Source: an uncultured Rhizobium sp. (lineage in GTDB: Bacteria; Pseudomonadota; Alphaproteobacteria; Rickettsiales; UBA1997). From it: DNA of 64,000 nucleotides. The DNA lies in the NCBI GenBank assembly GCA_964444545.1, contig CAYUHG010000002.1, positions 45,989 to 109,988 of the forward strand. Direction: 5' to 3'. Below are positions 14,943 to 40,096 of this stretch, one piece after another (within the stretch, counting starts at the first letter, position 1; every line of letters begins with the position of its first letter). The position numbers and the translations under genes were made by a program. Under the pieces are notes generated by a model. The model did no database searches. It saw only the letters and a list, made by a program, of their open reading frames with translations, and was not told where the DNA came from.

Positions 14943-15734
14943 TTATTCTGCTACGATTTTAGTAATTTCGCCGATCAATTTTTTGAAGCTGTCAGTTTCG
15001 TAATTATCGTGAACACCTTGCAACACAGAGGTGACGCGCTCTAAACCCATTCCGGTATCGATACAAGGTTTTGGCAAAGGAATCATTTTGCCGTCTTTTT
15101 GCTTTTCAAATTGCATGAAAACCAAATTCCAAATTTCGATAAAACGATCGCCATTTTCGTCTTTGCTTCCAGGCACGCCGCCGAAAATTTTATCGCCGTG
15201 GTCATAAAAAATTTCTGAGCATGGACCGCATGGGCCGGTATCGCCCATCGACCAGAAGTTGTCGTCAGTTGCGATGCGAATAATTTTTTGTTCAGGAAGT
15301 GAAGCGATTTTTTTCCACAAATTTGCTGCTTCGTCGTCATTGTGGTAAACAGTTACCAGAAGCTTATCGCGATTGATTCCGTATTCTTTGGTCAAAAGTT
15401 CCCAAGCGAAAAAAATTGCTTCTTCTTTGAAATAATCACCAAACGAAAAATTTCCTAACATCTCGAAGAAAGTGTGATGACGTGCGGTGTATCCAACGTT
15501 GTCGAGGTCATTATGTTTTCCACCAGCACGCACACATTTTTGCGAAGTTGCCGCGCGTTTGAATTTCGGAACTTCCACGCCGGTGAAATAATTTTTAAAC
15601 TGATTCATCCCCGCGTTAGTAAACATCAAAGTCGGATCGTTATGCGGAATTAGAGGACTGGATGCGATAATCTCGTGTCCATTTTTTGCGAAGTAATCGA
15701 GGAATTTTGTACGAATTTCGTTGGTTGTAAGCAT
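14943..15734 (-). CDS. alaS: alanyl-tRNA synthetase, N-terminal catalytic-core fragment (263 aa, stand-alone ORF)
   Basis: [47 protein letters not shown] and DTGMGLER. Ends ...[12 protein letters not shown] followed by TAA. Confidence 0.9.
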
Positions 15735-15856
15735 GAAATTTTATTGAGAATTTATGATATTTTTGGGTTGCTTGACAAAATATTAGCTGTCGCTTTAAAT
15801 CACCAACACAAATTGGCGATAGCCACACGCAGCCCTTCTAGCAATGGAAGGGCTGA

Positions 15857-16240
15857 CTAAATCAGCTCTATTACCTTCCTTCTGACAAGATCAAACTGAT
15901 CTTGCGTTATATCTCCCACCTTGTGCGTCAGACGCTTACTATCCCAAACTCTAATCTGAGATAACAATACACTACCGCTTTTTCCTTTAAGGTGAATTGG
16001 ATGATAAAATTTATTATCCTTAATTTTTGTGCTGAGAGGAACTCCAAGAAATATTTGGTTGTTGAATTTTCGAACTACCAAAACTGGTCGATTGAAAAAT
16101 TCATTCTTACCATTTTCTTCGTGTCCGACATTAAGACCAACACTACACCACCAAACTTCTCTTTGTTTAAAAGTTGGTGTTCTATGTTTATCGTCCAATG
16201 TCTTTTTTACGACATTACACTCGTCAAAATTTTTGTTCAT
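15857..16240 (-). CDS. PemK/MazF-family toxin-like protein, no adjacent antitoxin ORF
   Basis: Start taken at MNKNFDE. REVWWCSVGLNVGHEENGKN..RPVLVV...FLGVPLSTK...SVLLSQIRVWDSKRL matches the MazF/PemK fold pattern. The longer track ORF would overlap rnpB. Confidence 0.75.
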   Translation of the reverse strand: MNKNFDECNVVKKTLDDKHRTPTFKQREVWWCSVGLNVGHEENGKNEFFNRPVLVVRKFNNQIFLGVPLSTKIKDNKFYHPIHLKGKSGSVLLSQIRVWDSKRLTHKVGDITQDQFDLVRRKVIELI

Positions 16241-16261
16241 GGTGTTTGGTGATTTGGTGAA

Positions 16262-36875: not shown

Positions 36876-36912
36876 CAGCAGAACTTAAATCATTTATAAT
36901 CCACGTAAAAAC

Positions 36913-38256
36913 CTACGCGTTAATGCACTCAATAATCTCATCAATAATTCTAGCTATCTGAGCTTTATCTTTTCCTTCAGCCATAACACGAATCAAATTT
37001 TCAGTGCCAGATTTGCGTACCAAGATTCGACCATTACTGCCTAATTCTTGTTCTTTTGCTTTGATAAAATCTTGAACAAATTTTTCTTCGAGAGGGTTTT
37101 TCTTACCGGCATCAAATTTGGTATTCTTCAGAATTTGTGGGAACAGCTCAAAAAGATTTACCGCTTCACTTACTGGTTTTTTTGCATCACAAACTACCGA
37201 TAAAACCTGCAGCGCAGCAATTAAACCATCTCCCGTTGTTGAATAATCTGACAATACGATGTGACCAGATTGTTCGCCACCAAAGTTACATTTATTTTTC
37301 TTCATTTCTTCCAAAACGTAACGATCACCAACTTGCGAGCGAATTGTTGAAACACCGATATAGCTCAAATAATTTTCGAGAGCCAAATTCGACATTTGCG
37401 TAACAACAACAGTATCACGTTTTAAACTGCCATCATTGTGTAATTTTTCAGCGATCATGGCGATTAATTTATCGCCATCAATTGCATTGCCTTTTTCATC
37501 AACAATTAAAAGACGATCAGCATCGCCATCCAACGCAATTCCGATGTCGGCTTTTTCTTCGAGCACTTTTTTGCACAGTGCTTCAGGATGAGTTGATCCA
37601 CAATGTTCGTTAATGTTAAAGCCATTTGGTTCAGTACCAATTTCGAAAACGTCAGCTCCAAGTTCCCAGAAAATTTTTGGCGCGATTTTGTATGCCGCAC
37701 CATTGGCGCAATCGACGACAATTTTCATGCCAGTCAAAGTTTTATCTTTAGGGAAAGAATTTTTTACGAACTCGATATAACGATTAGAAGCATCATCAAG
37801 ACGAGTTACACGGCCGAAATTTTTTGATTCAGCTAAATGCGGCGTGATATCGCCTTCGATCAATTCTTCAATTTCTCTTTCTAGCTTATCGCTGAGTTTG
37901 TGGCCATCGCGGGTGAAAATTTTGATCCCGTTATCGTGATAAGGATTGTGTGAAGCGGAAATCATAATCCCAATGTCAGCGCGAATTGAACGAGTCAGCA
38001 TTGATACTGCAGGAGTTGGAACTGGACCAACTAAAAACACATCCATGCCGACAGCTGCCAAACCAGCGGTCAAAGCCGGTTCAATTACATAACCAGAAAG
38101 TCGCGTATCTTTTCCAATCACAACGCGATGACGGTGATCGCCATCAATAAATTTCGCCCCAATCGCCATGCCAACCTTTAGGGCGATTTCTGCAGTCATA
38201 GGGAATTTATTCGCTGTGCCGCGAATTCCATCAGTTCCGAAATATTTTTTTGTCAT
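36913..38256 (-). CDS. glmM: phosphoglucosamine mutase
   Basis: YFGTDGIRG and phosphoserine loop SASHNPYHDNGIK. Confidence 0.95.
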   Translation of the reverse strand: MTKKYFGTDGIRGTANKFPMTAEIALKVGMAIGAKFIDGDHRHRVVIGKDTRLSGYVIEPALTAGLAAVGMDVFLVGPVPTPAVSMLTRSIRADIGIMISASHNPYHDNGIKIFTRDGHKLSDKLEREIEELIEGDITPHLAESKNFGRVTRLDDASNRYIEFVKNSFPKDKTLTGMKIVVDCANGAAYKIAPKIFWELGADVFEIGTEPNGFNINEHCGSTHPEALCKKVLEEKADIGIALDGDADRLLIVDEKGNAIDGDKLIAMIAEKLHNDGSLKRDTVVVTQMSNLALENYLSYIGVSTIRSQVGDRYVLEEMKKNKCNFGGEQSGHIVLSDYSTTGDGLIAALQVLSVVCDAKKPVSEAVNLFELFPQILKNTKFDAGKKNPLEEKFVQDFIKAKEQELGSNGRILVRKSGTENLIRVMAEGKDKAQIARIIDEIIECINA

Positions 38257-38257
38257 A

Positions 38258-40096
38258 TTATCCGATCAAATTTTTTACTGCTGTGATTGCTGCTGCAATA
38301 CCGTCTTTATTGATTCCACCGCCCATCGCTAAATCTTTTTTTCCACCGCCACCTTTGCCACCAACAGCTTCAACAGCTGGTGCGATTAATTTTGCGGCAT
38401 CGAATTTTTCCAACAAATCAGCGCTGATGGAAATACAGACCGCAACTTTATCGTCTTTACAACCAAAAAATGCGAAGATGCAATTTGATTGGAATTCTTT
38501 TTTAGCTTTGGCATCAGACAAAATTTCGCGAATATCTTTAGCGTCACCATTAGCAAATGTATAGCTCACTAGGTTTACAGCGCCAACGCTTTCAGCTTTG
38601 AGATTATTTAATTCCGCAACTAGTTTTTCTTTTTTCAGACGCTCAATTTCTTTGTCGCGTTTCTTCAAAATTTCTTCTAAGTTTTTGGCATCAGATTCTT
38701 GTAAGTAAGACTGATCTGATTTCGCGCCGCCAATTGTCAAAATTTCTTCATCTTTTTTGGCGATTTTTTCTTTTAATTCTGCGATTTGATTTTGTGCTTT
38801 TTCTTGTTGCGCACGTAAAAACTCTTTCGCCGCTTCACCGCTTACAGCCTCGATTCTTCTAATTCCAGAAGCTACTGACTTTTCAGAAATGATTTTAAAA
38901 ATTTCGATGTCAGAAGTATTTTTAACGTGAGTTCCGCCGCAAAGCTCTACGGAATTTCCCATCGCGACAACGCGAACTTCAGAATCGTATTTTTCCCCGA
39001 ACAAAGCCTCAGCGCCGCTGTTTCTCGCATCTTCTAAGCCCATTAATTTTGTGTTAACGTCAGCAGAATTTTTGATTTGCGAGTTTACCATTTCTTCAAC
39101 TTTTTTGATTTCATCGGCAGTCATGGCGCGATTGAAATTGAAGTCGAAAGTGAAGTAAGACGCATCAACATTTGAACCTTTTTGCGAAATCGAATTGCCC
39201 AAAACTTCTTTCAAAGCTTTGTGCATCAAATGTGTTGCTGAGTGGTTGCTGGCTCTGGCTTGGCGGGTTTGAGAATTTACGTTTGTTTCAACTTCATCAC
39301 CAACTTTTAAATCACATTTTTGATTAGCAAAAAAATGCGCGAACAAACCGCCAGCGAATTTTTTAGTTTCAGAAATTTCGATGTTATTAATTTTTCCATC
39401 GTCACCTTTCTGACCGCCAGAAGTGGCGTAAAATGGAGTTTGATCTAGGATGATGAAGTTTGGATACACGGCCAAAACTTTGGCTTTCGCGCTTAAAGTT
39501 TCATAACCCAAAAATTTGGTTTCGCCGAATTGTTCTTTCAAATCGAAGAAGATTTTTTCTTCGGCCGTCTCGCCAGAACCTTTCCAATTTGCTCTTGCGC
39601 GTTCACGCTGATTTTCCATTTCTTGATTAAATTCCGCTACATCTACTCCATTTTTTATTCCTTTCGTTTGAAGAATAATTTGAGTTAGATCAAGGGGAAA
39701 ACCATAAGTATCGTAAAGTTTGAAAGCAGTTTTTCCTGAAAATTTGTAGTCTCCAGTCCAAATTAATTCTGGTTTGGCTAGTTCTTTGTCGATGATATCG
39801 AATCCTTTTTCTAAAGTTTCGCGGAATTTTTCTTCTTCGTTTTTTAGTGTTTCAACGATTACAGCTTTGGCACGAGATAATTCAGGATAAGCTGCACCCA
39901 TTTCGGCAATTAAGGCATCAACAAGTTTGTACATTTTTGCTTCTTTGGCACCAAGTTTATGAAGTTGAAGCATAGCGCGGCGCATAATGCGTCGTAGAAC
40001 ATAACCGCGTCCTTCGTTGCTTGGCAAAACGCCATCAGCGATTAAAAATGATGTTGAGCGTAAATGGTCAGCAATGATTTTAAATTCGGCTTTCAT
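38258..40096 (-). CDS. alaS: alanyl-tRNA synthetase, C-terminal fragment (tRNA-recognition, editing and C-Ala domains; 612 aa, stand-alone ORF)
   Basis: Begins MKAEFKIIADHLRSTSFLIADGVLPSNEGRGYVLRRIMRRA. Also HSATHLMH, CGGTH and GGKGGGGKKDLAMGG. An in-frame stop lies 3 codons upstream of the ATG. Confidence 0.9.
   Translation of the reverse strand: MKAEFKIIADHLRSTSFLIADGVLPSNEGRGYVLRRIMRRAMLQLHKLGAKEAKMYKLVDALIAEMGAAYPELSRAKAVIVETLKNEEEKFRETLEKGFDIIDKELAKPELIWTGDYKFSGKTAFKLYDTYGFPLDLTQIILQTKGIKNGVDVAEFNQEMENQRERARANWKGSGETAEEKIFFDLKEQFGETKFLGYETLSAKAKVLAVYPNFIILDQTPFYATSGGQKGDDGKINNIEISETKKFAGGLFAHFFANQKCDLKVGDEVETNVNSQTRQARASNHSATHLMHKALKEVLGNSISQKGSNVDASYFTFDFNFNRAMTADEIKKVEEMVNSQIKNSADVNTKLMGLEDARNSGAEALFGEKYDSEVRVVAMGNSVELCGGTHVKNTSDIEIFKIISEKSVASGIRRIEAVSGEAAKEFLRAQQEKAQNQIAELKEKIAKKDEEILTIGGAKSDQSYLQESDAKNLEEILKKRDKEIERLKKEKLVAELNNLKAESVGAVNLVSYTFANGDAKDIREILSDAKAKKEFQSNCIFAFFGCKDDKVAVCISISADLLEKFDAAKLIAPAVEAVGGKGGGGKKDLAMGGGINKDGIAAAITAVKNLIG

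Follow-up and report, generated by a model that had tools for sequence, protein, structure and literature searches.

Can a bacterial alanyl-tRNA synthetase (AlaRS) be made and used as two separately encoded chains? The question is raised by a 64,000-nucleotide (64 kb) stretch of contig CAYUHG010000002.1 from an uncultured alphaproteobacterium (referred to here as the window), in which the sequence of alaS is distributed over two open reading frames (ORFs), alaS-N and alaS-C. The two-gene AlaRS is real, ancient and selectively maintained in an uncultured alphaproteobacterial clade, and the two genes very probably encode the two subunits, designated α and β, of a heteromeric AlaRS. A first-pass annotation of the window had reported the two ORFs as intact. 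Their coordinates, strand, lengths (263 and 612 amino acids) and end sequences were all reproduced, and the reading as intact genes is borne out by the ratio of nonsynonymous to synonymous substitution rates (dN/dS), which indicates purifying selection.

The domain content of the pieces was analysed using Pfam and NCBIfam, which place both in AlaRS families only. The N piece carries a catalytic core of the AlaRS type with motifs 1, 2 and 3. It matches Pfam tRNA-synt_2c over positions 1–259 of 552 (E 1.6e-124) and TIGR00344 over positions 1–248 of 847, with a score of 402.7 bits that lies below the cut-off of 457.05. The alaS-C protein, the N-terminus of which is MKAEFKIIADHLRS, takes up both models at position 269, extending to 551 in tRNA-synt_2c and to 847 in TIGR00344 (499.6 bits, above the cut-off of 457.05), and additionally matches tRNA_SAD (E 9.3e-19) and DHHA1 (E 8.4e-10). 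It contains the remainder of the tRNA-recognition domain with the Asn and Asp that read G3:U70, the editing domain (HxxxH, CxxxH) and C-Ala. When joined, the pieces hold all four AlaRS modules and every functional motif tested, in collinear order; instead of the single polypeptide of about 870 residues of a canonical AlaRS, there are two ORFs 22.5 kb apart. The best PDB matches of both pieces are bacterial AlaRS enzymes, whereas alignments with archaeal AlaRS are partial. For alaS-N, residues 3–261 were aligned with Escherichia coli AlaRS (PDB entry 3hxu; E 1.1e-118), and the matches to the archaeal structures 3wqy, 2zze and 2ztg were weak (E 1e-11). The N piece is 70–78% identical to full-length alphaproteobacterial AlaRS.

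Each piece starts and stops at codons of its own. The alaS-C start is preceded by an in-frame TAA three codons upstream ('taa att acc ATG'), as had been claimed, and the stop codons of alaS-N and a convergent ankyrin-repeat gene adjoin each other. Neither start is preceded by a Shine–Dalgarno (SD) sequence, which is usual in this genome. An SD-like tetramer was found upstream of only two of 45 genes in the window, both times within palindromic repeats, and the leaders are A/T-rich; translation initiation in this organism appears to proceed essentially without SD sequences.

In the alignment with 3hxu, residue 261 of alaS-N corresponds to chain residue 270 and residue 5 of alaS-C to residue 280, and the cut falls at about residues 271–276 of E. 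coli AlaRS. The pieces were also aligned with ten full-length alphaproteobacterial AlaRS sequences, in which the end of alaS-N faces '...EEATG' and the start of alaS-C faces 'FRASHRVIADH'. About 5–6 residues of a length-variable loop are missing at the junction, in agreement with the 'few' of the first-pass annotation. The same annotation had put the cut between the catalytic domain and the one for tRNA recognition; the cut is indeed near this border, but one helix of the recognition domain, about 20 residues, precedes it. The N piece aligns without gaps over residues 2–254 with Methylomonas AlaRS429 (PDB entry 9jc7), in which the catalytic β-sheet domain comprises residues 1–241 and the tRNA-recognition helix bundle residues 242–429 (PMC12143591). 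From this alignment and these domain limits, alaS-N consists of the catalytic domain plus about 20 residues that form the first helix of the bundle. In the AlphaFold2 (AF2) model of alaS-N the mean predicted local distance difference test score (pLDDT) is 64, but helix 248–262 was modelled with a pLDDT of 86–89, and a hydrophobic stripe on this helix (F250, I254 and I257) is conserved across the clade. The G3:U70 identity pair is read in E. coli by N303 and D400 (PMC10036535). Their counterparts are N27 (in PSNEGRG) and D129 (in YDTYGFP) of alaS-C, which are invariant in 31 homologues. As both are on alaS-C, the active site and the identity readers reside on separate polypeptides; alaS-N corresponds to about E. 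coli residues 1–272 and includes neither N303 nor D400.

An artefact of assembly or binning, with the halves truly contiguous, has to be considered for a window that derives from metagenomic-type data and has metagenome-assembled genomes among its related records. We regard the probability of such an artefact as virtually nil. At least 23 contigs, from an NCBI assembly and from Logan assemblies of several runs of the SRR100360xx series, carry the exact alaS-N sequence, with constant surroundings (trpS-[rnpB]-pemK-N-ank-ank-ank-lysS(class I)-miaB), and 13 contigs carry the exact alaS-C sequence, in the constant order coaX-rnj-C-glmM. The contigs come from different sequencing runs and assemblers, and the flanks are unchanged among them. 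The stop codon of alaS-N, the start codon of alaS-C with its preceding in-frame stop, and a matching layout in a distant relative (on a contig of 884 kb) likewise argue against contiguous halves. Misassembly, which had been named as one way in which the split might prove spurious, is excluded by the independent assemblies.

More than 100 relatives share the split at the same spot. The best 120 of 8000 scored matches to alaS-N have 253–307 residues, mostly 260–263, and are 75–90% identical; all 120 stop near one point, 14–20 residues past DNYExD. The 120 best matches to alaS-C have 564–714 residues and are 58–100% identical, and more than 110 of them start 5–9 residues ahead of IIADH. No full-length AlaRS is present among the 120 closest matches of either piece. 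The ORF ends were confirmed at the DNA level in the related loci L001, L002, L084, L086, L088 and L090. A scan of GTDB species representatives was performed, and the best 80 loci were considered. In two of these (L001 and L002) there is an ORF of 261–263 residues, and a C-part is absent within 6 kb of it. The remaining 78 loci carry ordinary AlaRS genes, 65 of them with complete ORFs of more than 800 residues (most about 880–890); the remainder are cut by a contig end or interrupted, yet the junction is read through. At ordinary loci the two query pieces align 2–3 codons apart. A search of representatives clustered at 50% identity was uninformative for alaS-N because the conserved core merges split and full-length sequences into the same clusters.

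In a neighbour-joining tree of the C-part, 118 split and 65 full-length sequences are separated by one bipartition (bootstrap 50/50). Within the split clade p-distances reach at most 0.43, and no full-length sequence comes closer to it than 0.49; the 65 full-length sequences, which are mostly from different alphaproteobacterial orders, differ from one another by 0.42 on average. Judged by these distances, the split clade is as diverse as whole alphaproteobacterial orders. Sequence comparison supports a split that arose once, in the ancestor of the clade. Members of the clade are labelled at NCBI as Alphaproteobacteria, Rickettsiales, Pelagibacterales or 'Proteobacteria bacterium'.

Between the window and its relatives, dN/dS is 0.05–0.10 for alaS-N and 0.09–0.18 for alaS-C (dS at least 1). 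Among 121 split homologues, 121 of the 263 residues of alaS-N are at least 98% conserved; in alaS-C, conservation of 95% or more was found for 225 of the 612 residues. In alaS-N, motif 2 and motif 3 (IDTGMGLER) are invariant across the clade; PSNEGRG, YDTYGFP, HSATH, CGGTH and GGKGGGGKKD of alaS-C are invariant or nearly so. These figures bear on the proposal that alaS was disrupted and the pieces are its decaying remains, an intact alaS elsewhere doing the work. The part of the genome in view, 64 kb here and 10-kb flanks in the relatives, leaves space for such a gene. Against this, the same boundaries are kept in both pieces across more than 100 distinct lineages, dN/dS is 0.05–0.18 with saturated dS, the functional motifs are all invariant, no remnant of the missing half was seen beside either piece and the 120 nearest matches of each piece include no full-length sequence. 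Decay, which the first-pass annotation had itself listed as an alternative, is strongly disfavoured by the clade-wide conservation and dN/dS, and we consider it exceedingly unlikely.

Other essential proteins encoded in separate parts, cyanobacterial DnaE among them, are rejoined by split inteins. Split-intein protein trans-splicing, or trans-splicing at the RNA level, could in the same way restore a single-chain AlaRS. In more than 110 of 120 relatives, however, sequence homologous to AlaRS reaches to within a few residues of the termini, so that neither an N-intein of about 100 residues nor a C-intein of about 35 residues would fit. Neither piece has the fusion to an N-intein or C-intein expected of such a system, and no Hint or intein domain was detected in either by Pfam, in line with the earlier remark that intein hallmarks are absent. 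The only Rfam matches in the window are rnpB and one tRNA, with no intron-like RNA, and both ORFs have conserved start and stop codons of their own. The probability of covalent rejoining is thus put close to nil.

The proposed enzyme is accordingly one of two chains that remain separate. The α subunit contains the whole class II active site with motifs 1–3 and ends in an amphipathic helix, the one with which the tRNA-recognition bundle begins in single-chain AlaRS. The β subunit contains the rest of the bundle with the G3:U70-reading Asn and Asp, the editing domain and C-Ala. The chains would pair non-covalently through the native interface of the catalytic and recognition domains, with the terminal helix of α slotting into the helix bundle of β and completing it. 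The holoenzyme would probably be an (αβ)2 assembly formed, like other bacterial AlaRS, through C-Ala dimerization. One chain would then activate alanine, and the other would read tRNA identity and proofread. Of the E. coli AlaRS fragments, 442N is the smallest that is active, and 368N is unable to charge tRNA (PMC11392972). That α is shorter than 368N and lacks both identity readers implies that β would be needed in trans.

Alternatively, the two products may have separate functions, the N piece as a stand-alone ligase that activates alanine for an acceptor other than tRNA-Ala and the C piece as an AlaX-like factor that edits in trans or binds tRNA, with tRNA-Ala charged by another enzyme. Free-standing AlaX proteins exist, alaS-C matches the AlaXM model weakly, some relatives have the halves at unlinked loci, and the α subunit of Nanoarchaeum equitans AlaRS is weakly active on its own in a G3:U70-independent manner (PMC11392972). 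On the other hand, alaS-C keeps the complete acceptor-stem bundle with both readers invariant, neither of which AlaX needs, and alaS-N retains the terminal bundle helix with its conserved hydrophobic face. The boundaries of the pieces are exactly complementary, and an additional, unseen AlaRS would be required. We therefore consider separate functions very unlikely. It also seems unlikely, albeit conceivable, that the split uncouples alanine activation from identity reading and proofreading and provides a free α with an activity of its own. Such an activity might be G3:U70-independent or consist of non-tRNA acylation (compare the weak N. equitans α), and the α:β ratio could let cells tune charging and fidelity. 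The α gene follows stable-RNA genes (rnpB at five loci and tRNA-Ile at two) and the β gene is in an rnj–glmM operon, which would place the two under different expression regimes.

Several points weigh against the heteromeric enzyme. Both polypeptides are predicted from the genes, and their complex is a proposal. The case for a single alaS is made by selection, conservation and the 120 closest matches, with no whole-genome scan for a second copy. The AF2 model of alaS-N, for which the piece was modelled alone, is weak overall (mean pLDDT 64). Finally, neither piece has gained a docking peptide, and the affinity would have to come wholly from the native interface.

Both genes are on the minus strand, with alaS-C upstream of alaS-N. 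The coordinates of the pieces and their neighbours are given in Table 1.

Table 1. Positions in the window of the two alaS pieces, the adjoining genes and the interval between the halves.
Feature	Coordinates	Strand	Description
alaS-N (proposed AlaRS α subunit)	14943..15734	(-)	263 aa; class II catalytic domain, motifs 1-3, plus helix ~248-262
alaS-C (proposed AlaRS β subunit)	38258..40096	(-)	612 aa; rest of recognition helix bundle, editing domain, C-Ala
glmM (phosphoglucosamine mutase)	36913..38256	(-)	Pfam PGM_PMM I-IV; start 1 nt past alaS-C stop
rnj (RNase J)	40209..41948	(-)	Pfam; upstream neighbour of alaS-C
rnpB (RNase P RNA)	16262..16717	(-)	Rfam RF00010, 241 bits; directly upstream of alaS-N
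Interval between halves	15735..38257		22.5-kb housekeeping block; Pfam scans

From the C piece towards the N piece, the interval contains glmM, nhaA, lptB, DUF192, hisD, bamD, a class III aminotransferase and an AMP-binding enzyme, followed by an M48 peptidase, a DAHP_synth_1-family gene, a response regulator, Fe-ADH and secG and then by gcvT, gcvH, pth, nadA, trpS and rnpB. On the 884-kb contig the C piece (856,577–858,427) and the N piece (881,863–882,651) are on the same strand, C upstream, with 23.4 kb between them; they are 62 and 79% identical, respectively, to those of the window. The two intervals are collinear, and such collinearity in a distant relative identifies the interval as a conserved housekeeping block rather than an inserted or mobile element.

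The junction of alaS-C and glmM reads 'gga taa t ATG', and glmM follows alaS-C in every relative and context examined. The order coaX-rnj-alaS-C-glmM recurs in L081, L091, L092 and the P0220 contig; upstream of alaS-C, coaX-rnj was found in four contexts and nusA-infB in one. The context of alaS-N is more varied. In the window and in L001, L002, L084 and L086 it is located after rnpB, on the same strand; in L088 and L089 it comes after skp and tRNA-Ile(GAU) (about 22 nt from the tRNA), and in L090 after recN. The halves have thus moved independently in some lineages, in some of which they are unlinked, while the cut point has remained fixed.

The order C...N on one strand cannot be explained by an insertion or by a single inversion. 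The first-pass annotation had discounted a simple insertion, and the position of C upstream of N together with the conserved interval upholds this. The simplest route that we can propose to the order C...23 kb...N would be a tandem duplication of alaS and the downstream block, after which copy 1 would have lost the N part, and copy 2 both the C part and the block that had been duplicated; at no step would the cell have been without an intact enzyme. Transposition of the N part is a possible alternative. Recent recombination between repeats was rejected as the cause, as no repeats are common to the flanks of alaS-N and alaS-C, and no remnant of the missing half is present beside either gene. 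The reconstruction is weakened by the flanks of the full-length genes: glmM, rnj, coaX, trpS and nadA were not found flanking the 78 full-length alphaproteobacterial alaS loci. The cluster Sdh5-HIT-recN lies directly upstream of alaS-N in L090 (7475–10807) and about 7 kb upstream of alaS-C in L085 (441–11851), a hint that alaS may have been near recN in the ancestor, when the gene was intact.

In the relatives, rnpB was located at 5579–5981 (L001), 5290–5757 (L002), 9453–9892 (L084) and 7065–7533 (L086). Between rnpB and the ATG of alaS-N there are 20 nt in L001, 46 nt in L086 (hairpin and TTTT) and 108 nt in L084 (long perfect palindrome); terminator-like hairpins are present in L086 and L084 and not in L001. 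The repeated position of alaS-N just behind a stable-RNA gene may point to read-through or shared expression. In the window only a PemK-like ORF separates rnpB from alaS-N. It is a solitary PemK/MazF-like toxin gene (15857–16240, minus strand; Pfam E 2.4e-14) of 127 amino acids in independent assemblies, the mechanically called ORF reaching 16303 and overlapping rnpB. The adjoining space is too small for an antitoxin ORF, and the gene is missing at this position in L001, L002, L084 and L086.

A palindromic element of about 70–83 nt is present in four copies in the window (21238–21306, 29303–29383, 40114–40194 and 42735–42816). Its inverted ends are GTCATCCTGAGC...GCTYAGGATGAC, of which eight half-sites were counted compared with 0.17 expected by chance. 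The copies sit within or edge intergenic spacers, and one occupies most of the rnj/alaS-C spacer. The element looks like a miniature inverted-repeat transposable element or a repetitive extragenic palindromic repeat. A connection of the copy upstream of alaS-C with the split was considered. The two are probably unrelated, as the rnj/alaS-C spacers of L091 (67 nt) and L092 (65 nt) leave little room for the element, and this copy is one of four in the window.

Two tandem ankyrin-repeat genes (12036–13142 and 13155–14942, plus strand; Pfam Ank_2 for the latter) are convergent to alaS-N. The protein of the former has weak NCBIfam matches to the Legionella Dot/Icm effectors AnkX and AnkH, and a preceding gene (10975–12033, plus strand) has only weak or faint Ank matches in independent assemblies. 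Genes for VirB3 and TraG/VirD4 are located near alaS-C in relatives. The ankyrin proteins and the type IV secretion genes of the relatives suggest a host-associated, effector-secreting lifestyle. At 9357–10988 (plus strand), the lysyl-tRNA synthetase gene present in independent assemblies is of class I (Pfam tRNA-synt_1f), whereas bacteria usually have the class II enzyme. In the 884-kb relative, a DUF3800-IX sRNA (Rfam, 57 bits; L085 21096–21170, minus strand) adjoins a DUF3800 gene; no equivalent Rfam match was found in the window.

The split is a clean synapomorphy of an uncultured lineage that is apparently host-associated. Selection across this order-like clade indicates that the catalytic core and the tRNA-identity module of AlaRS can work as separate chains. 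The arrangement is a natural counterpart of the E. coli AlaRS fragment experiments and a system in which to study communication between domains. It is also an annotation hazard, as alaS-N scores below the TIGR00344 cut-off and is sometimes called a 'hypothetical protein'. The gene alaS is a single-copy marker in the GTDB bac120 set; where it is used as such, genomes of the clade are scored on a partial gene. The database labels of the clade proteins are 'alanyl-tRNA synthetase', 'alanine--tRNA ligase' and 'hypothetical protein', and the split is not mentioned in them.

Split synthetases are already known as a phenomenon. The first-pass annotation knew of no described bacterial split at this position, and our search of the full-text literature, the coverage of which did not extend to subscription-only journals, returned no bacterial split AlaRS. 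AlaRS is cited as the one synthetase that has kept its four domains on a single chain in all life, a generalization that the two-gene enzyme contradicts. In recent papers on AlaRS this form is described as conserved 'throughout biology', N. equitans being listed as the split exception (PMC10036535, PMC8887476). The enzyme described here is a second natural exception, independent, at another site and in Bacteria. In N. equitans, AlaRS-α (NEQ547) and AlaRS-β (NEQ211) reconstitute G3:U70-specific charging when the halves are mixed (PMC11392972). The nanoarchaeal split resembles the present one in having two distant genes, the active site on the N-terminal piece and no intein. Its cut, however, is at about E. 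coli residue 368, deep in the recognition domain, part of which is kept by the archaeal α (PMC11392972, PMC10036535). The bacterial cut is about 95 residues earlier, with both G3:U70 readers on the C piece, and the two positions are distinct. Neither a cut near residue 368 nor an archaeal-type AlaRS was found here, and the different cut in a bacterial-type enzyme marks the event as independent of the split in Nanoarchaeota.

Tupanvirus mini-AlaRS and AlaX/AlaXM are also examples of AlaRS modules that work as separate polypeptides (PMC10036535). In mini-AlaRS the catalytic and recognition domains are on one chain and the rest has been lost, whereas here nothing is lost. AlaX is the editing core only, whereas here the full enzyme is divided once, at another point. 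The score of alaS-C against the AlaXM model NF040865 (107.5 bits) is below the cut-off of 300, and the piece extends beyond the editing core by about 200 N-terminal recognition-domain residues and by C-Ala; it was not assigned to AlaX/AlaXM. Compared with the canonical single-chain AlaRS (TIGR00344, about 875 residues), there are two chains, about 5–6 fewer loop residues and a permuted order.

A further parallel is the α2β2 glycyl-tRNA synthetase (GlyRS) of bacteria, in which a small catalytic and a large tRNA-binding subunit are encoded by separate genes, glyQ and glyS. These are normally adjacent in one operon, whereas the alaS halves are 22.5 kb apart or unlinked. The β subunit of GlyRS differs in having an anticodon-binding domain and neither AlaRS-type editing nor C-Ala. 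The pieces do not belong to the GlyQ/GlyS families, alaS-N being tRNA-synt_2c, and the resemblance is architectural. GlyRS has nevertheless been proposed as a relative of AlaRS, its catalytic and acceptor-stem-binding modules being considered related to those of AlaRS (PMC9908026), and the two-gene AlaRS parallels its α/β architecture.

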